64,000 nt of DNA, from the IMG/VR virus record IMGVR_UViG_3300029474_000225, positions 35,109-99,108 of that record; one strand, given 5' to 3'. The position numbers and the translations under genes are program-made. The stretch is from a virus (Duplodnaviria; Heunggongvirae; Uroviricota; Caudoviricetes). The notes beneath the pieces were generated by a model. That model was not told the origin of the DNA and did no database searches. It was given only the letters and a program-made list of their open reading frames with translations. Position 1 is the stretch's first letter. Each line of letters opens with the position of its first letter. This document shows positions 23,642 through 48,227 of this stretch, piece after piece.

Positions 23642-24160
23642 ATGAAATGGAATGAAGTTCCGAAATTTACAGAATATGAATTAGTAAATCCAACATGTTT
23701 TGGTTTTATTTCTTATGTTGATTTTATTGAGAATGAAATAAAAGAATATAATCTAAATATGAACCCTGATTTTCAGAGAGGGCATGTTTGGACAGAGATT
23801 CAGCAAAGTAAATATGTTGAGTTTATTTTAAAAGGTGGAAAATCTGGAAGAGATTTTTATTTTAACTGGAATCCTGATACAAATGACTATGTTTGTGTCG
23901 ATGGGTTGCAAAGAACTATGGCTCTTCAAAATTTTGTACATAATAAGTTAAAAGCATTTGGACAATTTTTTGATGAGTTCAGTTTTACAAAATATATTGC
24001 TGCTTATAATCCATTACCGGAATATCGCATTAATGTATATCGAAATAATCTGAAGACTAAAAGAGAAATTCTTCAATGGTATGTTGATATGAATGCAGGT
24101 GGCACACCACATACAAATGAAGAGATTGAACGAATCAAGAAGATGATAGAAAATTTATAA
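23642..24160 (+). CDS. DUF262 (ParB-like nuclease superfamily, GmrSD N-terminal-type) domain protein, short stand-alone form
   Basis: Motifs PDFQRGHVW and VCVDGLQRTMAL (the DGQQR signature). SD AAGAGGT. Confidence 0.65.
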   Translation: MKWNEVPKFTEYELVNPTCFGFISYVDFIENEIKEYNLNMNPDFQRGHVWTEIQQSKYVEFILKGGKSGRDFYFNWNPDTNDYVCVDGLQRTMALQNFVHNKLKAFGQFFDEFSFTKYIAAYNPLPEYRINVYRNNLKTKREILQWYVDMNAGGTPHTNEEIERIKKMIENL

Positions 24161-25062: not shown

Positions 25063-25332
25063 ATGGAAAATTATAAAATCGGTTATAATGGTGATGCTTA
25101 TGTTGAAAATATTCACCATATGGGTGTTGAGTATAATGGAAATTATTATAGTGTGATTTTCGGAGAATATGTAAATGGAGGATTCTTTAGTATTCCAAAC
25201 TGGAATTGCGGTGGTGAGTTAGCTGATTTTAGTGATGTTTTTTGGAATACAGAATCTATTCAGAAATCATTGAAAAGTAAAAGAGCAGCTAAAGCTATTG
25301 CAAAAGTGATAGCGGATTACACAAGGGAGTGA
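25063..25332 (+). CDS. hypothetical protein
   Basis: SD AAAGGTGG upstream. Confidence 0.55.
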   Translation: MENYKIGYNGDAYVENIHHMGVEYNGNYYSVIFGEYVNGGFFSIPNWNCGGELADFSDVFWNTESIQKSLKSKRAAKAIAKVIADYTRE

Positions 25333-25337
25333 TAATT

Positions 25338-26318
25338 ATGTGTTATAAGATAGAAGTTCAAAATAAAAATGCTGAAAAGCTTAATAGGAAGTTGGATGAG
25401 TTAAATCTTCCTATATATATGAGAAAATATTTCACTGTTAAAATAGAGAGTAAGGCAGGTGCATTGAATTATCTTGGAGCTATTGTAGATTTGCTCAATT
25501 GGTTTATTAAAGAGAAACTTATTGATAAAACAAATATTTCAGATATTGAGCCATCGGATTTTACCGATATTATGGCAGAGGATATTACATTATATTTGAA
25601 AACTAAAGAACAGAATGGTATGTCACCAACTACATTGGAAACCAGAAAACATATGATAAGTAGCTTTTGGGATTATATGAGTAGAGTAAATGGAACTGAA
25701 ATTAAAGAGAAATTCTTCAAAGATGTAACATATAAAGGAATTCCATCTGGAAACAATTTAACTAAAAAACTTCCAACAGAAAAACAGCTTAATGATATGG
25801 AAGAAAAAATAATGTGGAAAAAGGATATTCCTGTAAGAAATAGAAATATTGCTATCTTTCGTGTATTAAGAGGAACTGGAATAAGAGAATCTGAACTTGC
25901 TGGCTTGGATTTATCTGATTTACATTTGGACGAAGAAATGCCATATATTACAATTCTTGGAAAAGGCGTGTACAGAGAAATGCAAAATAGAACGGTATAT
26001 CTTAGCGGATCTGCTTTAAAAGCATTAAGTGAATGGTTAGAATACAGAAGCACCTTAGATAATATTGTAGATACGGAAGCTGTATTTATCAATAAGAATG
26101 GCACACGCACAACAGAGAGAAATATCAAACAGATATTTGAAAATTATGGAAATGGTATTACTCCACATATGATGCGACATTATTATGCCAGTATAATGAA
26201 CAGTAATGGAAATCTTGCGTTCGTGCAGCAACAGTTGGGGCATAGTAGTGTAAATACAACGATTAATAATTATGCAAATGGATCAGTCGGAATGAAAAAA
26301 ATATTGGAGAATATGTAA
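25338..26318 (+). CDS. int: tyrosine-type site-specific recombinase / phage integrase
   Basis: C-terminal catalytic signature RGTGIRESELAGL...ILGKGVYREM...HMMRHYYAS...LGHSSVNTTINNYANG, giving the R...K...HxxR...Y residues. Confidence 0.8.
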   Translation: MCYKIEVQNKNAEKLNRKLDELNLPIYMRKYFTVKIESKAGALNYLGAIVDLLNWFIKEKLIDKTNISDIEPSDFTDIMAEDITLYLKTKEQNGMSPTTLETRKHMISSFWDYMSRVNGTEIKEKFFKDVTYKGIPSGNNLTKKLPTEKQLNDMEEKIMWKKDIPVRNRNIAIFRVLRGTGIRESELAGLDLSDLHLDEEMPYITILGKGVYREMQNRTVYLSGSALKALSEWLEYRSTLDNIVDTEAVFINKNGTRTTERNIKQIFENYGNGITPHMMRHYYASIMNSNGNLAFVQQQLGHSSVNTTINNYANGSVGMKKILENM

Positions 26319-26526: not shown

Positions 26527-26697
26527 CTAAGAAATAGTGTCGTCAAACTTATTAACTTCATTTGTTACGAGGTTACGAATCCAACCAGATAACGAGCGTC
26601 CATCCGCTGTTGCAATTCTGGCTGCCTTTTCTTTTATATCTTTAGAAAGAAGCACCATAACCCTTGTGTTTTCATCCTTGATTTTTCCTTGTGGCAT
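26527..26697 (-). CDS. ribbon-helix-helix (CopG/Arc/MetJ-like) DNA-binding protein, 56 aa
   Basis: Reverse-strand ORF absent from the track. The protein MPQGKIKDENTRVMVLLSKDIKEKAARIATADGRSLSGWIRNLVTNEVNKFDDTIS has an RHH signature. SD GGAGAT 7 nt upstream. Confidence 0.6.
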   Translation of the reverse strand: MPQGKIKDENTRVMVLLSKDIKEKAARIATADGRSLSGWIRNLVTNEVNKFDDTIS

Positions 26698-26869: not shown

Positions 26870-27250
26870 ATGGATTTACAGAGATACGACATAATAAAGG
26901 CAAAAATTAATTATGAAGGAAATTCAGTACAAGCGAATGAAAGACCTTATGTAATAGTAAGTAATCCATTGGGTACGAAATATGCTCCGATTATAACAGT
27001 GATGCCTTTGACAAGTAAGATTAAAAAGACAAACATGCCTTGTCATGGATGTATTCAAGCAAACGAAAATAATGGATTAACATTATATTCTATGGCGTTA
27101 GGTGAGCAGATCACAACAATCTCAAAAGATGAAGTGATCTCAAAAATTGGAACTATTACTGATGATAAAAATAAAAGAATGGTAGATAAAGTATGCTTTA
27201 ATTCTTTATTTTTTGGAACAGACTACAAGCTTGAGGAGGTAATGGCATAA
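26870..27250 (+). CDS. MazF/PemK/Kid-family endoribonuclease toxin homolog
   Basis: RYDIIKAKI...ERPYVIVSN...IITVMPLTSKIKK...HGCIQANENNGLTLYSMALGEQITTISKDEV..KIGTIT matches the PemK fold consensus. SD GAGAGGAGGAG. Confidence 0.65.
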   Translation: MDLQRYDIIKAKINYEGNSVQANERPYVIVSNPLGTKYAPIITVMPLTSKIKKTNMPCHGCIQANENNGLTLYSMALGEQITTISKDEVISKIGTITDDKNKRMVDKVCFNSLFFGTDYKLEEVMA

Positions 27251-27501
27251 TGTATGTAGATAAAGAAATAGCAAAAAAAATGATTGATGAAACACCTGGT
27301 AAAATATGGGTTGATTCCTTCAACGGTATGACTTTTATCCATACAAGACCAAGACAGATAACTGTTGATGAAGGAAAGCGAATAATAAATAGGGCAAACA
27401 CAATTAATTATCAAGATAATGACTTTTTTGGGTTGCTTTCGCTGGATGGAGTGCAGGAATTTATTGTGCATAATATTAAGTTTCCCCAAATAGTGTCCTG
27501 A
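27250..27501 (+). CDS. hypothetical protein translationally coupled to toxin-like gene (candidate antitoxin in reversed order)
   Basis: Its ATG overlaps the upstream stop (TAATG). 83 aa, with no recognised fold. Confidence 0.5.
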   Translation: MYVDKEIAKKMIDETPGKIWVDSFNGMTFIHTRPRQITVDEGKRIINRANTINYQDNDFFGLLSLDGVQEFIVHNIKFPQIVS

Positions 27502-27829: not shown

Positions 27830-27901
27830 AGGGCATTCGCCAAGCGGTAAGGCATCGCACTTTGACTGCGAAATTTGTCAGTTCGAATCTGATATGCCCT
27901 G
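27830..27901 (+). tRNA. tRNA-Gln (anticodon TTG), no encoded CCA
   Basis: Manual cloverleaf: acceptor AGGGCAT/ATGCCCT, D-arm GCC..GGC, anticodon stem TCGCA/TGCGA with loop CTTTGAC, T-arm GTCAG-TTCGAAT-CTGAT. Confidence 0.7.
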
Positions 27902-28065
27902 CTATGCGATACTTCCAGACCGGGTTCTATCGCAGAACGCAAGAATTAATCATTGTAAGAGCAAAATGTGTAGTTGCTATAGTTCTACCATAGCCTGATC
28001 CACTAACGGATTACAAGCTGATACTATAGAACTTCCTGATAAACTTGCGATAGTGTCAGCGACTT

Positions 28066-28139
28066 GGATCATTAGCACAATTGGTTAGTGCATTCGGCTC
28101 ATAACCGGACGGTTCAGAGTTCAAGTCTCTGATGATCCA
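28066..28139 (+). tRNA. tRNA with CAT anticodon (Met, fMet or Ile2), no encoded CCA
   Basis: Manual cloverleaf: acceptor GGATCAT/ATGATCC, D-arm GCAC..GTGC, anticodon stem TTCGG/CCGGA with loop CTCATAA, T-arm CAGAG-TTCAAGT-CTCTG. Confidence 0.7.
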
Positions 28140-28164
28140 TTGCTAAATCAAACAAAGAGAGGAG

Positions 28165-28782
28165 ATGATTACGTTGGCACAATATGTAATTACAGATGGT
28201 TCTCGTTGGATTATGAGAAATCGTAATGGTAAATATGTTCCAACATCTTGCGAGGCATTGGCTGATACATTTTCAAATAAAGCAGCCAATAATCTATATA
28301 ATAACTCGCTACCCAAAGCCTTGAAATCAGTATTTCATATCCAGAAAATTGATACCCCACCCGATAATGTAAAGCAGATTACACAATCAGAAGTGGAAAA
28401 TAATACCGAAAAAGTTATGGTTGCTGAAAATATCCAGAAATGGATTGACAAAATAACTGATCTTAATGGATTAGCAACAGATGCATTACATAGAAAAGAA
28501 GAATTGTGTGAAGAACTTAGCTTTGTAGACAGGGAATTATCCGATATCAATCATTATATAGAATTTTGCAATCTTAATGCAGCACAAGGATGGAAAGCAT
28601 ATAAGATGATAAAGGAACGGAGGATAAAAAGAAGAAGTATCAAAAATGAGATACAAATTCTTAACATTATTCTTGATAAAAAGATTTCTGATACAGTTAC
28701 AAATGAGATTTTGGAATCCATGTCGAAAATGGATAAGCGTACATATGAACCACGAGTAATGAACGAGCTGTTTGATTTGTAA
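28165..28782 (+). CDS. hypothetical protein (205 aa)
   Basis: SD GAGAGGAG upstream. The start may instead be the TTG at 28174. Confidence 0.55.
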   Translation: MITLAQYVITDGSRWIMRNRNGKYVPTSCEALADTFSNKAANNLYNNSLPKALKSVFHIQKIDTPPDNVKQITQSEVENNTEKVMVAENIQKWIDKITDLNGLATDALHRKEELCEELSFVDRELSDINHYIEFCNLNAAQGWKAYKMIKERRIKRRSIKNEIQILNIILDKKISDTVTNEILESMSKMDKRTYEPRVMNELFDL

Positions 28783-28797
28783 AGAAAGGATATACAT

Positions 28798-28980
28798 ATG
28801 GTGATTTGTAAAAGGTGTTATACGTCTATGGTTGTTGTTATGTCGTTTTCAAAGGACAAGCATGAGAAATTCTGTCGTTGTCCGAAGTGTTGTTCAGAGA
28901 CACGACATATAAAAATCAATGATAATGAGTTGAGTTTTGGAGAATATTTGTATAGAGAGTTAGACAGAAAAAGGAAATGA
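28798..28980 (+). CDS. zinc-ribbon protein (CKRC...CRCPKCC)
   Basis: 60 aa with two Cys pairs. SD AAAGGA upstream. Confidence 0.5.
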   Translation: MVICKRCYTSMVVVMSFSKDKHEKFCRCPKCCSETRHIKINDNELSFGEYLYRELDRKRK

Positions 28981-28990
28981 AGTAAGGCAG

Positions 28991-31198
28991 GTGCATGAAG
29001 TGAAAGACGAAATATTGCGTGAAAAATTAAATAATCTTTCATCACAACAGTTGGAATGGATTAATGAATACTGTGTAAATGATATGTCAAAATTGAAGAA
29101 AATTAGTTACAATGCATTTTTCAGGTATGGGATTCCAGCACATGAACATGACGAATTGTACGATGATGCAATGAATGTTCTGATGGAAAGTGTTATCAAC
29201 TTTGATTCATCTCAAGGTGCGAGTTTTAAAACTTACCTTATTAATAATATTAAAAAATCTGTTATTGACTGGTATAGAGACAACTATCAGAGATGTAAAA
29301 GAAAAAATCTATTAACTGATAAAAATGGAAAGATAGTAAAGGTTGATAAAAATGGAAATGTAACAGATGACGATAAAGGAAAACCAGTTATTATTCCAGA
29401 TACTTCATTTGATGCACCTACTGAAGAAGATAATGATTTAGTAGAAAAAATTGCATCTGACTTTAACGTAGAAGACAAGAGTGAGTTCGATTTTAGTGCC
29501 GATGAAAAAGTTGATAATTTTATTGATTCTTTGCCGAGGATACAAAAAAATATTTTGCTGATGCGGATGGAGAATGTTCCTGCTGATAATATAAAACAAA
29601 AATTGAATATATCAGACAGAGAATATAGTAGTGCTATGAAGTCAATTAAGATAAATAAAGGACTTTCAGTATTTTCAAAGAATAAAAATGATGGGAATTA
29701 TGATGTGGAGGTAAATAATATGGAAGACAGAATTATTGAAATTAGCGAATCTGAAAATTACAGGACGGACAAGTATAGCATGTATTCGTTGTTACAGGAT
29801 AAGAAAAATGGAGACGTGAACTGCAACTACATCTTGCAACGTGAACCTTTTCAGTGGACTACAGAAGAAGCGAATAGATATTTTTGTCGTATTCTTAGTA
29901 ATCTTCCTATTCCAGAAATTATTCTTTGTGAACAGAAGAAAAAGGGATTGACAATCTCTCATTTAATTGACGGATTGCAGAGACTTTCATATGCTGAGGC
30001 ATTCAAGGAAAATCGTATTAAGATTGGTTCAGCAGGAGCAGAGAGACATTTAATTCAGTATAGAGATTATGTCTTAGATGATAATGGAAATCGTGTACTT
30101 GATGAAGATGGCTTACCAGAATATGAGATGAAAATATTTGATGTTATAGGGAAATATTATAAAGATCTTCCTGATGAGTTAAAGAAACGATTCAATAATT
30201 TCAATATAAACGTAACAAAATTCTTTGATTGTACAGATGAGCAGATTGCAGATCATATTCGTGATTATAACAATCATGCGAGTATGAATAAGGAACAGGG
30301 TGGTTTTCTTAATGTATCTGCACAGACAGCGGGATATATTAAAAATATTTCACAGAAAAACACATTCTTTAAAAATTGTGGGAAGTTTACAGATAATAAT
30401 GTTATTAAGGGAAAGTTGGAACGTGTTGTTGCAGAATCAATAATGTTAATGTTCTTCCGTGATTCATGGAAAGCAAAACTTGATACAATTTACAAATATG
30501 TTGATGAAAATGCAACAGAACAGCAGTTCTTAAAACTTAATTCACATTTTAATAGATTGGAATTAGCATTAGGCGATGACAATAAAGACTTGAAGTCATT
30601 ACTTACTCCAACTACAATGCCAATGTGGATTGCAGTATTTGATAAATTTACTACATATAATATTGAAGATTCAAGATTCATTGATTTCTTAAGAGCATAT
30701 AATACAGAACTTAAAGATAAAGAAGTTGATGGTGTATCTATGGCAGATTTTAAAGACCAACAGACAAAGAAAAAGGCAACTATTACAGGTAAAATTGATT
30801 TACTTATAAAACTGATGAATGAATTTTTACATATTGGTACAAGAGAAGTAAATAACACAGAATTGGAGAATAACAATACGAAAGAAAGTGCTGAAGAAAA
30901 TACGGAAGAAAGTGTTCTTTCTTTTGTTCAAGAAAATGCAAATCCAAATGTGACGGACGAAGATATAAACCTTTACACAGACATGGTGGAAGATTGTGTG
31001 AAGATTGATGATCCAGTTTATAAGGAATGCGGAACTGCATTAGTAGCACTCATGGCATATGCTTGCCAAAATGATAAGGATCAAGACTTTGAAAAATGGA
31101 TTGAAAACTATAGAAATAAATCTGAATTTAGTCCATCACAGAAAGTTAATTATACATATATGAAACGCAGCTTTGATAATTTCGTAGCAAATGCGTAA
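28991..31198 (+). CDS. sigma-70 family (regions 2 and 4) domain fused to DUF262/ParB-like (DGxQR) domain protein, 735 aa
   Basis: N-terminus matches sigma region 2: HDELYDDAMNVLMESVINFDSSQGASFKTYLINNIKKSVIDWYRD. Region 4 HTH: LPRIQKNILLMRMENVPADNIKQKLNISDREYSSAMKSI. DUF262 motifs: QREPFQW ... LIDGLQRL. GTG start. Confidence 0.7.
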   Translation: MHEVKDEILREKLNNLSSQQLEWINEYCVNDMSKLKKISYNAFFRYGIPAHEHDELYDDAMNVLMESVINFDSSQGASFKTYLINNIKKSVIDWYRDNYQRCKRKNLLTDKNGKIVKVDKNGNVTDDDKGKPVIIPDTSFDAPTEEDNDLVEKIASDFNVEDKSEFDFSADEKVDNFIDSLPRIQKNILLMRMENVPADNIKQKLNISDREYSSAMKSIKINKGLSVFSKNKNDGNYDVEVNNMEDRIIEISESENYRTDKYSMYSLLQDKKNGDVNCNYILQREPFQWTTEEANRYFCRILSNLPIPEIILCEQKKKGLTISHLIDGLQRLSYAEAFKENRIKIGSAGAERHLIQYRDYVLDDNGNRVLDEDGLPEYEMKIFDVIGKYYKDLPDELKKRFNNFNINVTKFFDCTDEQIADHIRDYNNHASMNKEQGGFLNVSAQTAGYIKNISQKNTFFKNCGKFTDNNVIKGKLERVVAESIMLMFFRDSWKAKLDTIYKYVDENATEQQFLKLNSHFNRLELALGDDNKDLKSLLTPTTMPMWIAVFDKFTTYNIEDSRFIDFLRAYNTELKDKEVDGVSMADFKDQQTKKKATITGKIDLLIKLMNEFLHIGTREVNNTELENNNTKESAEENTEESVLSFVQENANPNVTDEDINLYTDMVEDCVKIDDPVYKECGTALVALMAYACQNDKDQDFEKWIENYRNKSEFSPSQKVNYTYMKRSFDNFVANA

Positions 31199-31418
31199 TC
31201 AATTTGGTAATAAGCAATAGCTTTTACATAAAAGATGGACAACGATATGTCGTGAAGTTGCTGTTGCCCATCTCACATATCAACCAGGAATAATCCAGAA
31301 GTCGATATACATATATAGTAATCTTTTCTTGAGGTTAAATCAACAACCAAATTGACATTCTTCTCGTTCTGAGTTGGATTATTCCATTATTAAAAAGTTT
31401 TAAAAGGAGAATAAATAT

Positions 31419-31574
31419 ATGCCGGCATTAGTATTATTGATTTTAATTGGTATCGTAATAATTTGGTTTTTGCTGTCGCCATTTTTTGATAAGATTGGCT
31501 CATTTGTCATCAGAAAAATAAATGGAATTACGGCAGATGAAAATAAAAACAATAAAGAAGAAAAGGAGATTTAA
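31419..31574 (+). CDS. small membrane protein (51 aa)
   Basis: Strong SD AAAAGGAGAA upstream. TM helix ALVLLILIGIVIIWFLLSPF. Its stop lies 5 nt before the start of the next gene. Confidence 0.5.
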   Translation: MPALVLLILIGIVIIWFLLSPFFDKIGSFVIRKINGITADENKNNKEEKEI

Positions 31575-31579
31575 GAAAC

Positions 31580-32449
31580 ATGAAAAAAGCAGTAGGTGGA
31601 GTTGTAGCAGCAGTTGTAATTGTTGTTGCAGTAGTTTTGTTAGCAATGTGTAGTGTAAAAATTCCGGCAGGTTATGTTGGTGTCCAGTATTCACTTAACG
31701 GAGGAATCAAAGGTAAAGTTCTTTCACAGGGATTACATTTTGTGTCGCCAACAACAAAAGTAACAAAATATACCGTTGGAATTGAGCAGTCATATCTCAC
31801 AAAGGCAGATAAGGGAGATTCCCCTAAAGATGAGAGTTTTTCTGCAAGTTCATCAGAAGGAAAAGCAATGACAATTGATCTTACTTATACATATCAGTAT
31901 CAACCAGATAATGTTGCGGATGTATTTTCAAGATTTAAAGGACAGAGTGGAAAAGAAATCAGAGATTCTTTCATTAAACCAAACATTATTTCTTGGACTA
32001 AAGAAGTAATTGCAAATTATCCTGTGTCTGATATTCTTGGATCAAAGAGAGCAGAAGTTAACACAGAATTGACAAAATATTTATCAAAGAAGTTTGAAGA
32101 TTACGGCATTACAATTTCAAATGTTTCAATGATTGATGTTTCTGTTGATAAGAAAACACAGAAGGTTATCAATGATAAGATTGCTGCACAGCAAGATGCA
32201 GAGACCCAGGAGATTAAAAATAGAACAGCAATTGAAAAAGCAAAAGCGGATGCAGAAGTTAAAAAGACAGAAGCACAAGCAAAAGCAGATGCTCAGTTAA
32301 TTGAGGCAAAGGCAGAAGCAGAATCAAATAACAAATTAAGTGGATCTATTACAGATGAACTTATTCGTATGAAAGAAGCAGAAGCAAGATTGAAACACGG
32401 ATGGGTTGAAGTAACTGGTAGTGAAGCAACAGTAGTCAAAGACAAGTAA
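31580..32449 (+). CDS. SPFH/band-7 (prohibitin/HflC-like) membrane protein
   Basis: N-terminal TM, then a band-7 core (VSPTTKVTKYTVGIEQSY...IRDSFIKPNIISWTKEVIANYPVSDILGSKRAEV) and an Ala/Lys/Glu-rich coiled-coil tail. Confidence 0.75.
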   Translation: MKKAVGGVVAAVVIVVAVVLLAMCSVKIPAGYVGVQYSLNGGIKGKVLSQGLHFVSPTTKVTKYTVGIEQSYLTKADKGDSPKDESFSASSSEGKAMTIDLTYTYQYQPDNVADVFSRFKGQSGKEIRDSFIKPNIISWTKEVIANYPVSDILGSKRAEVNTELTKYLSKKFEDYGITISNVSMIDVSVDKKTQKVINDKIAAQQDAETQEIKNRTAIEKAKADAEVKKTEAQAKADAQLIEAKAEAESNNKLSGSITDELIRMKEAEARLKHGWVEVTGSEATVVKDK

Positions 32450-32464
32450 GGAGATTCTTAAAAA

Positions 32465-32587
32465 ATGGGATTAACATGCAAACCAACTGGGAGAATGAAA
32501 CAAGTTTTGACAAAACTTACAAATCAGATTGAGAAAAATCGTATTGAAACTGAGAAGGCAAAGAGAGTAAGAAAAATCAAAAAATAA
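32465..32587 (+). CDS. small basic protein (40 aa)
   Basis: SD AAGGAGA upstream. Basic tail KRVRKIKK. Confidence 0.3.
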   Translation: MGLTCKPTGRMKQVLTKLTNQIEKNRIETEKAKRVRKIKK

Positions 32588-32682
32588 GTAAACTATTTAT
32601 ATGGACTTGTTTATATGGTGTTATAGACAAGTCCATTATACTAAAAGGAAAATTCTCTTTCTTTGGATTGTGAGGTGAGAAT

Positions 32683-34604: not shown

Positions 34605-36662
34605 ATGGATGGATTTATGATGTTTAAGAAGGCATTACAGAAGCATTTTGATGAAATGCAGAAAGAGGCAACACATTTATTTGAGGTAAATGTAGATAAG
34701 GATGAATTATGGAATACATATCTTGATAGCTTCCCTGCTGGTACAAATGAGATTTTCAGAGAGCGTAGAGAGCATGATTGCAGTTGTTGTAGACAGTTTA
34801 TTAAGAATATTGGTTCTGCTGTCACTATCAAGGATAATCAGATTCACACAATTTGGGAACTGAATCTTGGTGGTACAACATATCAGCCAGTATGTGATGC
34901 ACTTGACGCATTTGTAAAGGCTCATACAGTAACAGATATTTACACAACTAAGTTTCCTAAAATTGGTACAGATTTTAATTTCGAGGAAATCAATGGCAAG
35001 TCTCATCAGTGGGATCATTTCTTCTTAGAGCTTCCAAGTAAGTTCGTAAATAGAAGTAGTCGTTCTAATGAGGAAGTTAAAGGACAGTTCAGAGATACAA
35101 GAAACGTATTTAAGCGTTCTCTTGATGAAATTACTATGGATGCACTTGATACAATTCTTGAACTTATCAATTCAAATACACTTTACAAGGGTGAAGAGTG
35201 GAAAGGCGTACTCACAGAGTTCAAGAAGTATAAGAAGGAATATGATAAGCTGACTTCTGATACTGAAAAGGATTTATATGCTTGGGAGAAGTCGGTAACA
35301 GCAGGTATGGCTATTGGTAGAATTAGAAATCATTCTATTGGAACACTTCTTATTAATGTAAGTGAGGATATGGATCTTGACACAGCAGTTAAGAAGTATG
35401 AGCAGATTGTCGCTCCAAGTAATTATAAGCGTCCAAAGGCGATTTTTACAAAGAAGATGCTTGAGGATGCAAAGAAGACCATTACAGAACTTGGATATAT
35501 GGATTCATTACAGAGAAGATTTGCTAATCTGAATGATATTACTGTAAATAATGTACTGTTTTCAAATAAGAGTGCCGCAAGAAGAATGGTTGGAGCTGAT
35601 GATATTTTCGGTCAGATGGAGAAGGATGTAGCCGTAAGTCCTAAGAAGTTTTCAAAGGTTGAAGAGATTTCAGCACAGGATTTCGTTGATAAGGTACTTC
35701 CAACTGCAAAGGAGATTGAAGCTTTTGTAGAGAATAAACATGAGAAGAACTTTGTTTCTATGATTGCACCTGTTAATTCAGATGCTAAGACAATGTTCAA
35801 ATGGAATAATGGATTATCTTGGGCTTATTCAGGAAACATTACTGACTCTGATATGAAGCAGAATGTAAAAGCTGCTGGCGGTAATGTCGATGGTATACTC
35901 AGATTTTCAATTCAGTGGAACGAAGATGGACATGACAATTATGATCTTGATGCTCATTGCGTTGAACCAAACGGAACAGAAATCTATTATGGTAGTTACA
36001 AAGCACCAAGAATTACTTCTATGGGTGGTCAGTTAGATGTTGATGTAATTGATCCATGTGGAAAAGTTGCAGTAGAGAATATTACTTGGCAGGATTTATC
36101 AAGAATGAGACCAGGAACATATAGATTTTTTGTACATCAGTATTCAGGTGCAGTAAGACATGGATTCAGAGCAGAAGTTGAGTTCAATGGAGAGATTTAT
36201 TCATTTGATTATAGCAATCCTATGAGAACTGGTGAGAAAGTTCAGGTGGCAGAGGTAACACTTGACGAGAATGGCAACTTCTCAATTAAGGAAAAGCTGT
36301 CTGGAAGTTCATCTATCTCAAGTCGTGAGATTTGGGGTGTAAATACAAATCAGTTTGTTCCTGTATCAGTAATTAGTTACAGCCCAAACTATTTTGACGA
36401 GCAGGATGGAATTGGTCATAGACATTTATTCTTCTTCCTGAAGGATTGTGTGAACAACGAAAGTCCTAATGGCTATTACAATGAGTTCTTAAAGAGTGAC
36501 CTTGAAAAGCACAAGAGAGTATTTGAGGCTTTAGGTGCTAAGTGCCATGTAGAAGATACTGATGATCAGCTTTCAGGAATTGGATTCTCTATGACTAAGA
36601 GAGCAGATTTAGTTGTTAAGGTTAAAGGCGCAACAGAGCGTGTAATGAAGATTAAATTTTAA
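34605..36662 (+). CDS. large hypothetical protein (685 aa) with N-terminal HDCSCC Cys cluster
   Basis: Long ORF with SD AAGAGGT upstream. No family recognised by eye. Confidence 0.65.
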   Translation: MDGFMMFKKALQKHFDEMQKEATHLFEVNVDKDELWNTYLDSFPAGTNEIFRERREHDCSCCRQFIKNIGSAVTIKDNQIHTIWELNLGGTTYQPVCDALDAFVKAHTVTDIYTTKFPKIGTDFNFEEINGKSHQWDHFFLELPSKFVNRSSRSNEEVKGQFRDTRNVFKRSLDEITMDALDTILELINSNTLYKGEEWKGVLTEFKKYKKEYDKLTSDTEKDLYAWEKSVTAGMAIGRIRNHSIGTLLINVSEDMDLDTAVKKYEQIVAPSNYKRPKAIFTKKMLEDAKKTITELGYMDSLQRRFANLNDITVNNVLFSNKSAARRMVGADDIFGQMEKDVAVSPKKFSKVEEISAQDFVDKVLPTAKEIEAFVENKHEKNFVSMIAPVNSDAKTMFKWNNGLSWAYSGNITDSDMKQNVKAAGGNVDGILRFSIQWNEDGHDNYDLDAHCVEPNGTEIYYGSYKAPRITSMGGQLDVDVIDPCGKVAVENITWQDLSRMRPGTYRFFVHQYSGAVRHGFRAEVEFNGEIYSFDYSNPMRTGEKVQVAEVTLDENGNFSIKEKLSGSSSISSREIWGVNTNQFVPVSVISYSPNYFDEQDGIGHRHLFFFLKDCVNNESPNGYYNEFLKSDLEKHKRVFEALGAKCHVEDTDDQLSGIGFSMTKRADLVVKVKGATERVMKIKF

Positions 36663-37073: not shown

Positions 37074-37188
37074 TTGTTGCAAATATACCATATATAGTAT
37101 TGGAAATAAGTAATATATACTATATATGGTATATATTTTACATTAGAATGAAACGCACATTTCTTGCGGAATTTTGGAGGTTAAGACA

Positions 37189-38217
37189 ATGACAATTGAA
37201 CAGATTAAGGACAAATTAAAATCAAAAGAGTATGACTTCCTGAGAACAGATAAGAATTTGGGTAACAATATCATTATCTTAACTCTTGGTGGAAGTCATG
37301 CATATGGAATGGATAAAGAAGGATCTGATTTAGATGTGAGAGGTATTGCACTCAACAGCAAATCAGATATTTTACTTGGAACAGACTTTGAACAGGTCGT
37401 AGATGTTGATACAGATACAACTATGTATTCGTTTAATAAAATGATACAGCTTTTAGCATCAAGTAATCCTAATACAATTGAACAACTTGGCTGTTTACCT
37501 GAGCATTATTTACATTTATCTAAAATTGGTAAAGAATTATTAGACAATAGAAAAATGTTTCTTTCGCAGATTTGTGTTCACACCTTTGGAGGATATGCGG
37601 GTTCTCAGCTCAGACGTATGGAAAACAAGGCTGCAAGATTGGTTGGTCAGGCAGAAAATGAAGCCTACATTTTAAAAAGCATCAATAATGCAAGATATGA
37701 ATTTAAAAACAGATATTATCCTCATGAAAATAGTGATGTGAAACTATATATTGATAAGGCTGTTCAAGAAGGATATGATAGTGAGATTTTTATGGATGTA
37801 AACTTGCAACATTATCCGTTAAGAGATTGGGCTGGCATGTGGAACGAAATGAAGTCCATTGTTAGTAGTTACAGTAAATTTGGTAAAAGAAATGAAAAGG
37901 CTGTAGCCCATGATAAATTAGGAAAGCATATGGCTCATTTGATTCGATTATATATGATGGGTATTGATATTCTGGAAAAGGAAGAGATTATCACTTATAG
38001 ATCAGACGAACACGATTTACTTATGAGTATTAGAAATGGAGAATATTTAGATGAAAATAGACAACCTATTTCTGCGTTCTATGATTTATTGAATGAATAT
38101 GAAAAACGTTTTGAATACGCAAAAGAAAATACATCTTTGCCTGATAAACCTGATTATAAGAAAATCAATGAATTTAAGATGCATGTAAATGAGAGAATTG
38201 TGAAAGGAGATATCTGA
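37189..38217 (+). CDS. nucleotidyltransferase (pol-beta superfamily) domain protein
   Basis: NTase signature IIILTLGGSHAYGMDKEGSDLDVRG, matching the GS-x9-13-DxD motif. SD GGAGGTTAAG upstream. Confidence 0.6.
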   Translation: MTIEQIKDKLKSKEYDFLRTDKNLGNNIIILTLGGSHAYGMDKEGSDLDVRGIALNSKSDILLGTDFEQVVDVDTDTTMYSFNKMIQLLASSNPNTIEQLGCLPEHYLHLSKIGKELLDNRKMFLSQICVHTFGGYAGSQLRRMENKAARLVGQAENEAYILKSINNARYEFKNRYYPHENSDVKLYIDKAVQEGYDSEIFMDVNLQHYPLRDWAGMWNEMKSIVSSYSKFGKRNEKAVAHDKLGKHMAHLIRLYMMGIDILEKEEIITYRSDEHDLLMSIRNGEYLDENRQPISAFYDLLNEYEKRFEYAKENTSLPDKPDYKKINEFKMHVNERIVKGDI

Positions 38218-39179
38218 TGGAAATATCAAATAGAGCGAAAGAAAGATTCTGTAAGGATTGCAATATACCAATTAGATTATTCCAAGAGCCATACTTTTTA
38301 GATAGAATTAAGCTTTTTGATGAGTTCTATGGAACTGTTGACAAGTGGATTAGATTTGCAAGCGAATTACAGGGGTATAATTGTGAGCAGGATTATTTTG
38401 AAGAATATAATCATGTAAAGGATGCAGCTATTACAAGTATCAAAGAGTCAGAGGCATATCAGAGATTTAATGCGGAAAATATGAACAAATTCACTGTGAT
38501 TCATAAAAATTTATCTAATAAAGATATATTTAAGCCAACTAATACTGGAAGAGTTTTTATCAGTATTGATATGAGAAAGGCTAATTTTTCATCTTTACAC
38601 GAATATGATAAAAATATATTTCTTGGAACTGATACATGGGAAGATTTTATTTCTCAATTCACAGATAACGAACATATTATAAATAGTAAATATATTCGTC
38701 AGGTAATTTTGGGTAATTGCAATCCCAAAAGACACATCACATATGAAAAGTACCTTATGGATCAGACATTATCGTTATTATATGACATCATTGGTGAAGA
38801 GAGAATTGTATTCTTTTCAAATGATGAGATTGTTTATGATATGACAACAGTAAGTAATTTGCACATGTTAAATCTTGTGAGAAATTGTGTTGAAGAAAGA
38901 TTAAGTACAAAATCTAATATCCCATTCAGAGTTGAATTATTTTCGCTCCACAAAATCAATGGTACTGACGGATACTGTAAAAAAATCTACAAAGAAAATG
39001 GAGAATATAGTATTGAGTTCAAATGTTTAGACAACTATATGATGCCATTCGTACTTAGATATTTCTTGGGAGAAGAAATTACTGAAAGTGACAAGGTATT
39101 CTACCATGAAGGACTATTGGCAAAGTTTATTGATGAACCGAAAATTGAGGTGAATTTTGATGAAAAGATTGAAAATTGA
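38217..39179 (+). CDS. hypothetical protein coupled to NTase gene
   Basis: ATGA start/stop overlap with the upstream gene. 320 aa. Confidence 0.6.
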   Translation: MEISNRAKERFCKDCNIPIRLFQEPYFLDRIKLFDEFYGTVDKWIRFASELQGYNCEQDYFEEYNHVKDAAITSIKESEAYQRFNAENMNKFTVIHKNLSNKDIFKPTNTGRVFISIDMRKANFSSLHEYDKNIFLGTDTWEDFISQFTDNEHIINSKYIRQVILGNCNPKRHITYEKYLMDQTLSLLYDIIGEERIVFFSNDEIVYDMTTVSNLHMLNLVRNCVEERLSTKSNIPFRVELFSLHKINGTDGYCKKIYKENGEYSIEFKCLDNYMMPFVLRYFLGEEITESDKVFYHEGLLAKFIDEPKIEVNFDEKIEN

Positions 39180-40533
39180 AATTCCATCTGGTGCAAATGA
39201 AATTATTCATACTTTACAGAATAATGGATATGAAGCTTTCCTGGTAGGAGGATGCGTGAGAGATAGTATTCTTGGCAGATCAATTCACGATTATGACATT
39301 ACAACTTCTGCCACGCCAGATGAAATGATAGAAGTATTCAAGGACAAGAGAATTATTGAAACTGGTTTGCAACATGGAACTATTACCATTGTAATTGACG
39401 GTGAGGGATATGAATGTACCACTTACAGAATTGACGGTAATTACTCAGATAGCCGTAGACCTGATAGCGTAACATTTACACGAAGTCTTAAAGAAGATCT
39501 AAAGCGTAGAGATTTTACAATCAATGCGATGGCATACAATGATGAAATTGGTCTTATAGATCCGTTTAATGGTATGGAAGATATTGAGCATTATAAAATC
39601 AGATGTGTTGGTAGAGCAGAGGATAGATTTTCAGAAGATGCTTTAAGGATTTTACGTGCTATTCGGTTTGCTTCACAATTGGGATTTGTAGTTGACTCTG
39701 ATGTAAGTTTGAACATTCATAAAATGTATAAGAATTTAGAGAATATATCTATTGAGAGAATCAACAGTGAGTTTTGTAAGATTGCATTATCAAGCGAGTT
39801 TTATATACAGATAGGATTATTCCGTGAAGTATTCTCGTTGTTCATTCCTGAAATTAAAGATATGTTTGGCTTTCAACAGAATAATCCATATCACATCTAT
39901 GATGTATGGAATCATACAGTACATGCAGTACAAGCTTATGAATGTGATTGTGAACCAGACTTGAATCCAAGAGATTTGATTACATCATTGGCTGTATTTT
40001 TTCATGATATTGGAAAGCCACATTGTTATCAAGATGTCGAGGATGGCATTAGACATTTCAAAGGTCATGGAAGAGTCAGTGCTGATATGACTGATGAAAT
40101 AATGAAGCGATTAAGATTTGATAATGACACAAGAGAAAAGGTTGTTGAATTAGTTTATTATCATGATGCTACTTTTGAGGTTGGAAAGAAATATGTCAAG
40201 AGATGGCTTAATAAAATTGGAGAAGAACAATTTAGAAGATTATTAAATATTCGTAGAGCCGATATTAAAGCACAAGCAGGCATGAATCAGGAAACAAGAT
40301 TACAGAAGATTGATAACATCGAATATATTTTAGAAGAAGTCTTACAGGATGATGAATGTTTTTCTCTAAAGGATTTAGCAGTTAATGGTAAGGAGTTAAT
40401 TACTATTGGATATAAGCCAGGAAAAGAAATTGGTGAGGTATTAAATAATCTGTTGGATTCAGTCATTAGTGGAGAATATATAAATGAGAAAGAAAAATTA
40501 TTAGAAATAGCAGAGAGGAGATTACATGGTTAA
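39160..40533 (+). CDS. CCA-adding enzyme (tRNA nucleotidyltransferase) with HD domain
   Basis: PolyA-polymerase head domain GGCVRDSILGRSIHDYDITT...RRDFTINAMAY, plus HD motif FFHDIGK. Confidence 0.8.
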   Translation: MKRLKIEIPSGANEIIHTLQNNGYEAFLVGGCVRDSILGRSIHDYDITTSATPDEMIEVFKDKRIIETGLQHGTITIVIDGEGYECTTYRIDGNYSDSRRPDSVTFTRSLKEDLKRRDFTINAMAYNDEIGLIDPFNGMEDIEHYKIRCVGRAEDRFSEDALRILRAIRFASQLGFVVDSDVSLNIHKMYKNLENISIERINSEFCKIALSSEFYIQIGLFREVFSLFIPEIKDMFGFQQNNPYHIYDVWNHTVHAVQAYECDCEPDLNPRDLITSLAVFFHDIGKPHCYQDVEDGIRHFKGHGRVSADMTDEIMKRLRFDNDTREKVVELVYYHDATFEVGKKYVKRWLNKIGEEQFRRLLNIRRADIKAQAGMNQETRLQKIDNIEYILEEVLQDDECFSLKDLAVNGKELITIGYKPGKEIGEVLNNLLDSVISGEYINEKEKLLEIAERRLHG

Positions 40534-41452
40534 ATTATTTTCACATACGGATCTTGATGGAATCGGTTGTGGTATTTTGGCAAAACTTGTATTTGGTAAA
40601 GATAATGTAGAAATTTCATATTGTGATTACGACAATATTGATTCAACTGTAAAGGAATATTTAGAAACAGAACAGGACGACACAATCCCAATTTATATTA
40701 CCGATATTCGTGTCAATGAAGAAACTGCTGAGTTGCTGAATAAAAGAGGCAATGTTCAGTTATTAGATCATCACCCAACAGCTCTTGGATTAAATAAGTA
40801 TGATTGGTGTGATGTAGTTATCGAAGATTCTAAAGGAATTAAAACATCGGGAACTATGTTGTTTTATCATTGGTTAGGTATGAATGGTTGCCTGAGTGAA
40901 GAGTTAGAGAATAATAATGCGTTAAAGAGATTTGCTGAATTAGTGAGAGATTACGACACTTGGAGATGGTCAGAACTTGGTGAAGATGGTGTTATTTGCA
41001 AGCAGGTGAACGATTTACTTTATCTGTATGGTCGAGATGATTTTATTCATTGGTGTATTTCAGAGATACGTGGTGAAATATTCCCATTGTTATCTGCTAA
41101 AGATGAGGTTGTTCTGAAGATTAAGCAGGATGAAATTGATAGATATATTGAGGAGAAGAATGAAACCATGTTTACCAGTCCTATGTGTGGTAAGGTTTGT
41201 GGTTTTGTATTTGCAGATAGGTTTGTTAGCGAATTAGGTAATAGACTTTGTAAAATGCATCCTGAAATTGATTTTGTGGCAATGATTGATATTGATGGTT
41301 GTACGGTATCTTATAGAACCGTTAAAGAAGATATTGATCTTGGTAAAGATGTAGCAAATTTATTTGGTGGTGGTGGTCATCCAAAAGCTGCTGGTTCAGA
41401 ATTTGGTCAGAGTATTAAGTTGAAAATTATTGGGGAAATCTTTGGACAGTGA
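40526..41452 (+). CDS. DHH-family phosphoesterase (NrnA-like oligoribonuclease/pAp phosphatase type)
   Basis: DHH motif SHTDLDGIGCG...LDHH and DHHA1 motif GGGHPKAAG. Confidence 0.75.
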   Translation: MVKLFSHTDLDGIGCGILAKLVFGKDNVEISYCDYDNIDSTVKEYLETEQDDTIPIYITDIRVNEETAELLNKRGNVQLLDHHPTALGLNKYDWCDVVIEDSKGIKTSGTMLFYHWLGMNGCLSEELENNNALKRFAELVRDYDTWRWSELGEDGVICKQVNDLLYLYGRDDFIHWCISEIRGEIFPLLSAKDEVVLKIKQDEIDRYIEEKNETMFTSPMCGKVCGFVFADRFVSELGNRLCKMHPEIDFVAMIDIDGCTVSYRTVKEDIDLGKDVANLFGGGGHPKAAGSEFGQSIKLKIIGEIFGQ

Positions 41453-42348: not shown

Positions 42349-43841
42349 ATGAAAAAAATAATTATTGTGAGTTAAGTGTAATTGAGCTTTGTAGTGGTAT
42401 TGGTGCGCAGATGAAGGGAATTGATAATACTCATCTATTTAATGCAAATATGATTGCAACAGCAGATTTAGACAAAGAAGTAGTAGTTAGTTATGCTGCA
42501 ATTCATTGTGGTTTGACTAATGAAATGATTGAAAACTATGAAGATTATCCAAGCAAAGAAGAAATGGTAAGACAGCTTACAGATAAGAGACTTGGATATG
42601 ATTTTAAAAAAGATGTTCCGTATGATTGGGAAAAGCTTTCACGAAAGAAGAACAAGACAAAAGGTATTGAGAAATATTGGTTAGCAGACCATATTTCACA
42701 TAATCTTGGTGATATGATGCAGATTGAGTCTTTACCATATTGCGACTTACTTACATACTCAACGCCATGTACCGATCTTTCCATCGCTGGTAAGCAGGAA
42801 GGATTAAAGTGGACATGTCATGATTGTGGTTGTGAATATGATCCATCAGAATTAGATGTAGATACTCGTTATACTTGCCCTAATTGTGGCAGTCACAACA
42901 TTAAATCAACTCGTTCAGGTTTATTGTATGAAGTTGAAAGACTTCTTGTAAAAGCAAAAGAGAATAATACATTACCAAAGTATTTGCTTATGGAGAATGT
43001 AGATGCTCTTGTATCAAAGAAGTATATTGATAGTTTCAAGGATTGGTTGATTCGACTTGATAACTTGGGATATAACTCATATTATCAGACAATCAATGCA
43101 AAGAATACAGGTATCCCACAGAATCGTAATAGAATCTTTTGTATCTCTATTCGTAAGGATGTTGATACCAAGTCATTTGAATTTCCACAGCCTTTTGATA
43201 CAGGAATCAGATTAAAGGATTTATTAGAAACAGATAGCAGCGTTCTGGAGAAATATTTCTTATCTGATGAAGTACAGAAAAGACTTCAGATAACAGATCC
43301 AAAATTTGAAAAGAATATCGTTGGTACTACAAAACCTGAATTCAGAACTATCGGTCAGAGAGATTTAGTCTATCAGCAGGATTCAGTAATGGGTGCTTTG
43401 GTGGCAACTGATTATAAACAGCCAAAACAGATTCTTGCTGATTCAAATAATATAAAAAGACTTTTTAATATTTATGGTGAAAATAAAGGAACTGGATTCG
43501 CAGGAAATGTTTGGGACAAAGATTATATTTCTCCAACAATAACAACATGTCAAGGAGGAAATCGACAACCAATGGTCGAAGAAGAGAGAGACAATTTAAG
43601 AGTTGTGAGAAAACTTACGCCAAAAGAGTGTCATAGGCTCATGGGATTCGATGATATTGATTATGAGAATTGTAAAGCAGTTGGAATGTCTGATACTCAG
43701 GGATATAAACAAAGCGGTAACAGTATAGTGACAACTTGCATTTCTTTGTTGATTGAGCATTTATATAAGGCTCAGTACGACAATACATATATTTGTACAG
43801 ATGAGAAGATGGTAAATTTTCATCAGCCACAAGTGGATTAA
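42349..43841 (+). CDS. DNA (cytosine-5)-methyltransferase; N-terminus interrupted by a frameshift at an A7 tract (42352-42358)
   Basis: Motif I ELCSGIGA is encoded in the main frame upstream of the first in-frame ATG. An ATG at 42349 opens the +1 frame as MKKIIIVS, which then hits a stop. Further motifs: PC motif TPCTDLSIAGK, ENV, QNRNR and GNS. Confidence 0.7.
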
Positions 43842-46656: not shown

Positions 46657-47421
46657 ATGTTAGAGATTAACAAAATATACAATGAAGATTGTCTTGAAGG
46701 TATGAAAAAGATTGATGATAAATCAGTCGATGCGATTATTACGGATCTTCCTTATGGACAAACTTCACGAAATAAATGGGATTCAGTTATTCCATTTAAA
46801 CCATTATGGGAACAGTATGAAAGAATCATTAAAGATAATGGTGCAATTATTCTATTTGCGAATGGTATGTTTACTGCAGATTTAATGCAAAGTAATCGTA
46901 AGCTTTGGAAATATAATCTGATTTGGGAGAAAACACAACCAACAGGATTTCTAAATGCTAAGAAAATGCCATTACGTTCACACGAAGATATTTGTATTTT
47001 CTATAAGAAACTTCCAACATATAATCCACAAAAAACAACCGGACATCCAAGAAAAGTTAGTAAAGCAGAACATAAGACTAACTGTAAAGAGACTACTGAT
47101 TATGGAGAACATGGTTTTACTACTTATGATAGTACAGAAAGATATCCTAAGTCGGTATGGACATTTGCAAAGGATATTCAAAAGTCGGCACTTCATCCGA
47201 CACAAAAGCCTGTAGCACTGATTGAAGAGTTGATCAAGACCTACACAAATCCAGGAGATTTAGTTCTTGATTCATGTGCAGGAAGTTGTACAACTGCAAT
47301 TGCAGCTTTGAATACTGGTAGAAACTATATATGTTTCGAGAAGGACAAGGATATTTTTGAGGTTGGAAGTAAGAGAGTAGCTGAATATGCTAATCAAGAT
47401 TTATTGATGAGTGCAACTTAA
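46657..47421 (+). CDS. DNA methyltransferase, beta-class N6-adenine/N4-cytosine (DPPY-type)
   Basis: Motif IV IITDLPYG precedes motif I LDSCAGSCTT. Confidence 0.75.
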   Translation: MLEINKIYNEDCLEGMKKIDDKSVDAIITDLPYGQTSRNKWDSVIPFKPLWEQYERIIKDNGAIILFANGMFTADLMQSNRKLWKYNLIWEKTQPTGFLNAKKMPLRSHEDICIFYKKLPTYNPQKTTGHPRKVSKAEHKTNCKETTDYGEHGFTTYDSTERYPKSVWTFAKDIQKSALHPTQKPVALIEELIKTYTNPGDLVLDSCAGSCTTAIAALNTGRNYICFEKDKDIFEVGSKRVAEYANQDLLMSAT

Positions 47422-47495: not shown

Positions 47496-48227
47496 ATGGT
47501 ATATCAAGGAAGTAAAAACAGATTGGCAAAATTTTTAGTGCCAATTATTCAGAAGTATATTGATGATAATAATATTAAAACTTACATAGAGCCTATGGTT
47601 GGTGGAGCTAATCTTATTGATAAGATTAAATGTGACAAAAGAATTGGAGCGGATATTAACGAGGAATTGGTTACTTTGTTGAAATATGCTCAGACAGACA
47701 ACAGCTTATCTATTGCATCTGAAGTATGTACATTTGAACATTATGCAGAGGTTAGAGAAGATAGAAAACTTGGAACTCATAAGTATTCACCAGAATATAT
47801 TGCATTGATTGGATATATGGCAAGCTATGGTGGTAGATATTTTGATGGTGGTTATGGTAGAGATTCAAAGGGTGGTAGAAGTATTTATAATGAGAGATTA
47901 AATAATTTCAAGGAACAAGCACCGAATTTAAATGATATTGAATTTATGTGTTGTGATTATCAGAATTTCTCAGATTATAAAAACTGTGTATTCTATTTTG
48001 ATCCACCTTATAAAAATACAAAACAGTATTCTAAACAGTCAATTGACTACGATTCTTTTTACGATTTTCTTCGTAAACTTTCAGAGAACAATATAGTGTT
48101 GGTAAGTGAATATAATATGCCTAATGATTTTAAGTGTATCTGGCAGAAAGAGCGTAAAGTGTTGCAGAAGTCAGATAGAGTAACAGGCGAAAAAGCAGTA
48201 GAAAAGTTATTTGAAATAAGAGAATAA
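47496..48227 (+). CDS. dam: Dam-family DNA adenine methyltransferase (alpha class)
   Basis: N-terminal YQGSKNRL motif, FxGxG-like EPMVGGANL, and motif IV FYFDPPY. Confidence 0.75.
   Translation: MVYQGSKNRLAKFLVPIIQKYIDDNNIKTYIEPMVGGANLIDKIKCDKRIGADINEELVTLLKYAQTDNSLSIASEVCTFEHYAEVREDRKLGTHKYSPEYIALIGYMASYGGRYFDGGYGRDSKGGRSIYNERLNNFKEQAPNLNDIEFMCCDYQNFSDYKNCVFYFDPPYKNTKQYSKQSIDYDSFYDFLRKLSENNIVLVSEYNMPNDFKCIWQKERKVLQKSDRVTGEKAVEKLFEIRE

Follow-up and report, generated by a model that had tools for sequence, protein, structure and literature searches.

What would a sigma factor do in one polypeptide with a ParB/DUF262-type module, and why would a phage carry such a protein? The question is raised by 64,000 nucleotides of a Caudoviricetes genome (IMG/VR record IMGVR_UViG_3300029474_000225), referred to here as the window, and within it by a plus-strand gene at 28991-31198 which encodes a protein of 735 amino acids (aa). 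Whether the protein starts at the GTG at 28991 is uncertain; in many relatives the call is three codons shorter, at the in-frame GTG 29000. A sequence-only reading had seen sigma regions 2 and 4 at the N-terminus of this protein, a nuclease-like DUF262 module behind them and a further 400 aa of unknown sequence, and had placed the gene in a membrane-coupled cassette of five genes. In this study, we show that a sigma-70-type factor is coupled, covalently or within an operon, to a module like that of the defence protein NsnA. That this architecture is real and widespread is well supported; for its mechanism we make a proposal.

The sigma half consists of region 2 (29042..29299, aa ~18-103), built of three long helices, a linker (29300..29500, aa 104-170) and the region 4 helix-turn-helix (HTH) with four helices (29501..29674, aa ~171-228), all on the plus strand. 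The linker holds an insertion of about 70 aa and combines a beta-hairpin insertion with an acidic segment resembling region 3.2 (IIPDTSFDAPTEEDNDLVEKIASDF; predicted local distance difference test, pLDDT, 54-91). Pfam Sigma70_r2 matches aa 43-98 with 28.4 bits against a gathering cutoff of 24, and PHROG 351 'RNA polymerase sigma factor' matches at 5e-12. The NCBIfam profile TIGR02937 (sigma70-ECF) aligns its positions 18-156 of 165 with aa 43-218, which includes region 4; its score of 41.6 bits falls short of the cutoff of 42.9. These matches bear out the two sigma regions of the sequence-only reading, and the hidden Markov model (HMM) search that it had proposed identifies the N-terminus as a sigma domain. 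Compared with all PDB sequences, the profile of the family matches only sigma factors and regulators with a sigma4-like HTH (LuxR/GerE-type response regulators). The best match is SigH 3mzy (1e-9, profile positions 38-192), and the alignments to SigA chains take in the region-3.2 segment ('SLDaPieeedeltlgdviasd' in the profile). In the structural analysis, whole sigmas in holoenzymes were aligned over 124 (SigB), 125 (RpoH) and 128 (FliA) residues. Both features of the sigma-70 family, region 2 and the region 4 HTH, are present, and the source databases offer no name for the fusion beyond 'sigma-70 family', given by JGI. As judged from its sequence, the N-terminus is a complete sigma-70-type factor with region 2, a 3.2-like linker and region 4, and this half would bind the core of RNA polymerase. 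No other sigma of the fusion family is found within the window or within the 176-kb genome MT835469.1.

Concerning the second half, a disordered tether (29675..29755, aa 229-255) leads to a DUF262 (GmrSD_N) domain, probably of the ParB/Srx fold (29756..30280, aa 256-430), and to an all-helical domain (30281..30835, aa 431-615; model helices H434-612). Following a disordered linker (aa 616-640), the protein ends in a variable C-terminal domain of five helices (30911..31195, aa 641-735), all again on the plus strand. This last domain is optional in the family, in which a size class of 560-640 aa goes without it. On the 735-aa protein GmrSD_N/DUF262 covers aa 281-422 with 24.9 bits, under the cutoff of 33.2. 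When 62 full-length members of the family were compared with Pfam, GmrSD_N was matched by 46 (best 7.7e-18), Sigma70_r2 by 28, Sigma70_r4_2 by 12, Sigma70_ECF by 10 and GerE by 8. In the alignment of these 62 members Q283, R284, G328, P394 and N427 are invariant and W289, D327, Q330 and R331 near-invariant; together with Q283, R284 and G328 the latter form the motifs QR...W and DGxQR, and N427 occupies the position of motif III. The DUF262 assignment stands for the family, by its GmrSD_N matches and its conserved motifs, and this protein taken alone stays below the cutoff. NsnA is the top match of the 735-aa protein in the PADLOC defence library (2.9e-11), and the homologue of MT835469.1 (L001) covers positions 17-383 of the 385 of that profile. 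NsnA is composed of a ParB-DUF262 domain with the motifs QRxxxW, DGxQR and FxxxN and of a helical DNA-binding domain, 'ParBDB', which is common to NsnA, DndB, GmrSD and SspE (PMC12065111). The all-helical domain is equivalent to this C-terminal domain of NsnA, and most of the supposedly unknown 400 aa is a ParBDB-type domain as in NsnA, followed by the variable C-terminal domain.

In GmrSD and SspE the DUF262 part acts as nucleoside triphosphatase (NTPase) and sensor, and DUF1524 is the nuclease. Neither the 735-aa protein nor any of the 62 members matches DUF1524 or HNH in Pfam, and the structure model is all-helical beyond residue 411, with no beta strands. Lacking the DUF1524 His-Me nuclease, the fusion protein cannot act as the GmrSD, BrxU and SspE enzymes do, and the label 'nuclease-like' had to be given up. 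NTPase activity and DNA sensing are the functions that the DUF262/ParBDB half may exert instead. The structure was predicted as an AlphaFold2 monomer from a 100-sequence alignment (mean pLDDT 89.4, predicted template modelling score, pTM, 0.66). The model shows four blocks: the sigma half (sigma2 helices 18-103, sigma4 172-228), an alpha/beta DUF262 domain (256-430), a helical domain (431-615) and the C-terminal domain (641-735). Residues 158-160, 234-251 and 619-638 are disordered, with pLDDT below 50 at 234-251 and 619-638. Foldseek placed BrxU on top, followed by ParB-CDP and Noc, with E-values as weak as expected for a multidomain query (0.1-1 for the ParB/Srx-fold matches ParB-CDP, ParB-CTPgammaS and Noc). 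The prediction confirmed both halves and revealed no nuclease domain.

An exhaustive HMMER search over 1.84 billion cluster representatives gave 711 clusters at E <= 1e-3 and 226 at E <= 1e-30. Among the best 150 clusters, 60 are full length (at least 660 aa) and 71 measure 440-660 aa; most of the latter start at about query residue 255 and thus represent the DUF262 module without sigma. An identical or near-identical protein is encoded on hundreds of independent metagenome contigs, and one variant (P0054) was found in 151 blocks of the assembly collection (94 contigs). IMG/VR contributed 51 loci with 38-99% identity on contigs of mostly 90-160 kb, and the human faecal phage MT835469.1 encodes a homologue of 765 aa which is 27% identical end to end. 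Megablast of the region against annotated phages gave no match. A single-protein query of genome contigs gave no relatives; these were recovered with a sub-family alignment. Scanning the GTDB species genomes with DUF262-internal motifs gave 65 loci, almost all of them in Lachnospiraceae or other Clostridia. Among them are the complete chromosomes of Lacrimispora sp. HJ-01 and [Clostridium] asparagiforme DSM 15981 and isolates of Sporofaciens, Faecalicatena, Enterocloster, Lactonifactor and Eubacterium plexicaudatum ASF492; Faecalicatena contorta and Sporofaciens musculi belong to the cultured carriers.

The two halves are not always joined. We classified 129 loci with two HMMs, one from each half of the family alignment. 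The DUF262 module is fused to sigma in 96 of these loci, including one on the complete Lacrimispora chromosome, and 26 loci have a separate sigma gene directly adjacent. The remaining seven, which show neither arrangement, comprise a distant Bacillus-phage DUF262, a marginal hit and loci of metagenome-assembled genomes. In the split form a sigma gene of about 200 aa lies immediately upstream of a DUF262 gene of about 480 aa, and the split point corresponds to the disordered tether of the fused form. Two loci (L052, L056) carry at the position of the fusion a 202-aa sigma gene, 19 bp and a 478-aa DUF262 gene. In these loci the 205-aa gene that precedes the fusion in the window is 97-99% identical to the window's, a zinc ribbon gene next to it 70-78%, and the final ~95 protein residues 96%; here, within one phage lineage, a split allele has taken the place of the fused one at an unchanged position. 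Even distant stand-alone DUF262 relatives (P0146, P0167) lie 23 bp downstream of genes of 207-221 aa with weak matches to Sigma70 region 2 or region 4. The worry that the open reading frame (ORF) joins two genes by an assembly artefact is dispelled by independent assemblies, by isolate genomes and by the 96 independent fused loci. The numbers of fused and adjacent loci form a Rosetta-stone pattern which says that the two halves work as one unit. Full-text searches of the literature found no description of a sigma factor with a DUF262, GmrSD or ParB-like architecture, as the sequence-only reading had supposed.

These loci bear on whether the N-terminus is a sigma factor in function. It might merely resemble one and, without binding RNA polymerase, give an NsnA-like protein one more DNA-binding domain for sensing, which we regard as quite unlikely. 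Additions of this kind are on record: 23% of NsnA proteins have extra DNA-binding domains at the N-terminus, some of which resemble sigma region 1.1 (PMC12065111), and BrxL carries a sigma-HTH-like domain (PMC12839542). In addition, conservation in the sigma half is poor across the family: F79, R104, L181 and I201 alone are near-invariant in the 62-member alignment. However, the N-terminus comprises a full region 2, a 3.2-like linker and region 4 instead of a lone HTH, and a free-standing sigma gene exists in the 26 split loci. Moreover, no role of region 2 is known besides binding to the core and to the -10 element.

The nature of the carriers was recognised from the commonest neighbour in bacterial-genome loci, a protein of about 910 aa on the opposite strand without a Pfam or PDB sequence match. 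It belongs to phrog_8308 and is 41% identical to YonO of SPβ over 97-99% of the length (for example L071:2124-4868(-) and L129:2607-5300(-), and also in L149 and L184). The two genes, yonO and the sigma gene, are divergent in 33 of 63 genome loci, separated by a median of 1.08 kb. Four IMG/VR contigs of the window's phage group carry both genes, with yonO on the opposite strand about 29-36 kb upstream, hence just beyond the left edge of the window. We identify the carriers as temperate Lachnospiraceae phages of the SPβ-like, YonO-encoding type, and the YonO homologue indicates that the window derives from such a phage of about 150 kb. In MT835469.1 the fusion, the 205-aa partner and an extra DUF262 paralogue are present, with no detectable YonO. 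YonO is a single-subunit RNA polymerase which transcribes only the late genes of SPβ, so that early and middle genes depend on the host RNA polymerase (PMC5467207). The idea that the sigma is a specificity factor of YonO was set aside, as SPβ is without the gene and MT835469.1 without detectable YonO; that YonO is without most domains of multisubunit RNA polymerases (PMC5467207) was also counted against it. Upstream of yonO the sequence of 29 non-redundant loci is mostly coding and contains no common promoter. The fusion gene comes first or early in a rightward array, next to HTH regulators. This position at the head of the early array favours regulation over exclusion.

We propose, with confidence that is about evenly balanced, an early phage sigma for the host RNA polymerase, gated or targeted in cis by the fused DNA- and nucleotide-sensing module. 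The protein would be made early in the phage programme, its sigma half would bind the core of the host RNA polymerase and direct it to phage promoters, and the DUF262-ParBDB half would serve in cis to switch or target the sigma, depending on DNA and nucleotide. It might keep sigma inactive until phage DNA is engaged, or it might concentrate sigma on phage DNA.

Such regulatory control of sigma by the DUF262-ParBDB half is suggested by analogy with several known systems. ECF41/ECF42-like sigmas have fused C-terminal regulatory extensions, and in classical operons sigma and anti-sigma are encoded side by side. As in these, the sigma considered here is a compact sigma2 plus sigma4 with its regulator fused or in the next gene. 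Unlike in these, the extension is a ParB-DUF262 NTPase-type domain plus ParBDB of about 500 aa instead of SnoaL, TPR or ZAS, the protein is phage-encoded and the sigma linker holds the insertion mentioned above. DndB is a DUF262-like transcriptional regulator of the dnd operon. By analogy, the fusion may likewise employ a ParB/DUF262-type NTPase module for DNA binding and transcription control and not for cleavage, but DndB is a stand-alone repressor and the module here is physically joined to sigma. NTPase activity of DndB is cited in PMC12065111. With GmrSD and type IV restriction the fusion shares the N-terminal DUF262 with a DGQQR-type motif and differs from GmrSD, BrxU and SspE by the absence of the DUF1524 nuclease. 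With NsnA of the Menshen system it shares the two-domain core, including QR...W, DGxQR and the invariant Asn at motif III, and the N-terminal DNA-binding domains are variable there too (PMC12065111). It differs in having a full sigma from region 2 to region 4, since only region-1.1-like domains were reported for NsnA (PMC12065111), and in being phage-encoded at a fixed regulatory position. Among the neighbouring proteins PADLOC finds neither the ABC-ATPase NsnB nor the effector NsnC of Menshen. Like the SPβ programme (PMC5467207), that of the carriers includes a YonO homologue, with the sigma-DUF262 gene divergent from yonO; SPβ has at the equivalent position yonR, yonS and further yon genes.

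Several observations weigh against an early phage sigma under such control. Identities were compared domain by domain between the window gene and loci L009-L059. Within a clade of 57-99% overall identity, the DUF262 domain holds at 80-100%, whereas sigma2 (37-99%), sigma4 (45-100%) and the C-terminal domain (27-97%) each vary independently. The two split loci of the same lineage come from an otherwise near-identical phage, its flanking sequence sharing 96-99% identity with that of the window, in which the entire block from sigma to ParBDB has been exchanged. This mosaicism fits frequent intragenic recombination, probably at the disordered linkers. Variable sigma regions and block replacement are hard to square with a sigma that serves many dispersed phage promoters, and suggest a small or local regulon, a generic specificity or a role in an arms race. 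Furthermore, no promoter motif ties the sigma to a target. Among the intergenic k-mers of the window only the 9-mer TATATAGTA is enriched (13494, 31312, 37091, 44210 and 60271, all five copies being intergenic); it resembles an ordinary -10 box and has no consistent -35 element, and a generic sigma-70 promoter scan found no more sites than in shuffled sequence. SPβ manages without a sigma-DUF262 gene, which is therefore not essential for an SPβ-like lifestyle. Finally, NsnA, SspE and BrxU/GmrSD, the closest characterised relatives of the C-terminal part, are defence sensors.

The last point leads to a different possibility, a prophage defence or superinfection-exclusion switch in which DUF262-ParBDB senses foreign (e.g. 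modified) DNA and sigma triggers a toxic or protective response through neighbouring cargo genes or a MazF-like toxin. There is a precedent for output through a sigma in type III-E CRISPR (Csx30/RpoE), and NCBIfam returned a weak match of the protein to the type III-E CRISPR-associated sigma (8e-4). The prominence of NsnA in the defence library, the strong allelic diversification with domain shuffling and the replaced allele in otherwise identical phages would all suit such a switch. So would the adjoining cargo hotspot with TerD/PspA, SPFH and Tpt1, the SIR2 and AAA_15/21 genes of L063 and the PemK toxin gene, which lies upstream in 54 of the 59 related phage and metagenome loci over which co-occurrence with the fusion gene was counted. 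Against a switch of this type, there is no adjacent NsnB or NsnC and no fixed effector, and the downstream genes vary by strain. The gene runs in the lytic/early direction, away from a minus-strand HTH/ribbon-helix-helix regulator and divergent from yonO, and it keeps its position across phages at 27-99% identity, as a core regulator would do more than a moron. We consider a defence switch possible, though on balance somewhat unlikely.

An unlikely variant is that the DUF262-ParBDB half forms an NTP-gated DNA clamp, or reads the state of DNA, and so links sigma physically to phage DNA. Initiation by the host RNA polymerase would then be confined to loaded or recognised DNA, for example DNA marked by phage methyltransferases. 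In T4 late transcription the sigma gp55 acts with gp33 and the sliding clamp gp45, and KorB is a ParB-family CTPase clamp which acts on transcription. The fusion would resemble clamp-activated gp55/gp33/gp45 in one polypeptide or an enhancer-binding ATPase fused to sigma. Unlike for the gp45 and KorB clamps, the formation of a clamp is conjectural here, and the search for parS-like sites gave a single inverted repeat beside the gene whose recurrence in the window does not exceed chance.

Regarding the surroundings of the fusion gene, nearly all window genes lie on the plus strand. The five ORFs of the sequence-only reading are all present there: a 205-aa protein (28165-28782), a 60-aa zinc ribbon with two Cys knuckles, CxxC ... 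CxCxxCC (28798-28980), the fusion, a 51-aa membrane peptide with a hydrophobic N-terminus (31419-31574) and a 289-aa SPFH/Band_7 protein (31580-32449; Band_7 match 1e-25). A further ORF of 40 aa was found at 32465-32587. A tRNA-Gln (27830-27902) and a tRNA-Met (28065-28140) directly precede the 205-aa gene; apart from these two, Rfam detected nothing within 26-34 kb of the window. Further upstream follow the PemK/MazF-like gene (26870-27250), which overlaps an 83-aa ORF (27250-27501), and the integrase (25329-26318). The view that the fusion gene lies after integrase and regulators in an accessory-rich region is upheld. The PemK/MazF-like gene and the 83-aa ORF may be a toxin-antitoxin pair or the leader of an early operon; a divergent ORF of 56 aa (26527-26697), ribbon-helix-helix-like by eye, precedes them.

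Over the 59 loci, the 205-aa partner accompanies the fusion in 51 and the zinc ribbon in 49, as compared to 12 for the 51-aa peptide and 9 for SPFH. The 205-aa protein has a small N-terminal beta/alpha domain and a long helical hairpin (coiled coil), and is kept down to 21-30% identity. In the bacterial-genome loci it was found in 5 of 63, and both partner and zinc ribbon are nearly absent. Equivalents of the ribbon are a 50-aa CxxC...CxxC protein in L008 and another in L066; L001 and L007 have none. The 205-aa protein and the zinc ribbon are accessory, lineage-specific partners restricted to the large-phage lineage. The ribbon had been likened to an anti-sigma partner, which is not supported by its presence in few of the 63 genome loci or by its make-up. 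It is a two-knuckle ribbon with a weak match to the PHROG 1257 zinc finger and no Pfam anti-sigma domain match, and in the L008 equivalent the His expected from the ZAS pattern H-x3-C-x2-C is not kept.

Directly behind the fusion gene, a conserved non-coding spacer of 198 bp (31199-31396) ends the sigma-DUF262 unit. It is about 93% identical across 19 loci with differing downstream cargo (fold z-score -2.0) and holds an 11-bp inverted repeat (31233-31243 / 31263-31273) as well as the copy of TATATAGTA at 31312. Beyond it lies variable cargo outside the conserved unit (31419..32636, plus strand), namely the peptide, SPFH, the 40-aa ORF and a terminal hairpin (32601-32636) that closes the SPFH unit; this hairpin and that at 31233-31273 bracket the unit. 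Next to fusions of 99% identity, other phages carry at this place a P-type ATPase, three TerD and PspA (L002, L004, L005) or Tpt1 and a CCA-adding enzyme (L003). An AbrB-like gene is another alternative of the hotspot cargo (window 31199-32640; L002-L005 8200-14199; L052 8005-9600). These differences and the low counts identify SPFH and the peptide as exchangeable cargo of a hotspot and not as partners.

This leaves little room for the original model, in which a membrane-coupled five-gene exclusion cassette uses sigma to deliver a nuclease-like DUF262 to promoters or RNA polymerase, with the zinc ribbon as anti-sigma. In its favour, the genes are adjacent and co-directional, and in one other clade, with a fusion of 68% identity (L030-L041), the fusion gene is likewise followed by SPFH and the peptide. 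Yet there is no nuclease domain to be delivered, DUF1524 being absent, and SPFH and the peptide are missing from 47-50 of the 59 loci and give way to unrelated cargo beside 99%-identical fusions. In addition, the hairpin-bearing spacer divides the two units, and most bacterial-genome loci have neither zinc ribbon nor partner. The five-gene order is not kept in most other phages, which show lineage-specific partners and swappable cargo, and the coupled membrane defence module of peptide and SPFH dissolves for lack of stable co-occurrence. The distribution thus contradicts the cassette, which we regard as very improbable.

The phages contain further ParB-superfamily proteins. Stand-alone DUF262 paralogues are encoded in the window (23642-24160, plus strand), in MT835469.1 (154206-155207, minus strand) and in L066 (3381-4460). 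The window paralogue (172 aa) matches GmrSD_N with 42.7 bits, above the gathering score, and also PADLOC NsnA and PD-T4-2_A. A ParB-like protein is encoded in the early region (7664-8608; PHROG 1033, 4e-8), so that together with the DUF262 paralogues the phage has several members of this superfamily. Three DNA methyltransferase genes (42411-43841, 46657-47421 and 47496-48227) make heavy methylation of the phage DNA probable, which is relevant if the DUF262 module reads the modification state. A set for RNA repair and tRNA maintenance (37174-41452 and 52480-54682) comprises a nucleotidyltransferase, a CCA-adding enzyme, a DHH phosphoesterase, an RNA ligase and a polynucleotide kinase, which suggests counter-defence against anticodon nucleases. 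A 685-aa protein without Pfam domain (34605-36662; phrog_1735, E 3e-267) recurs with 75-100% identity in 27 of the 59 related loci at variable distance downstream.

Sigma factors and ParB/DUF262 NTPase sensors have both been studied well, and we found no report of a joint unit. Their coupling is a feature of gut Lachnospiraceae phages that form a large, very common group, and near-identical copies number in the hundreds in human-gut metagenomes; it is directly testable since several cultured isolates carry the sigma-DUF262 gene. If the protein is a defence switch, it would represent a new architecture leading from a sensor to a sigma output. If the DNA clamp applies, it would provide a new principle of discrimination between self and non-self in transcription initiation. 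If the module gates or targets its sigma, transcription initiation would be controlled in a new way by the state of DNA or nucleotides, and this could explain how SPβ-like phages schedule early and middle genes, transcribed by the host RNA polymerase, before the late genes of YonO.

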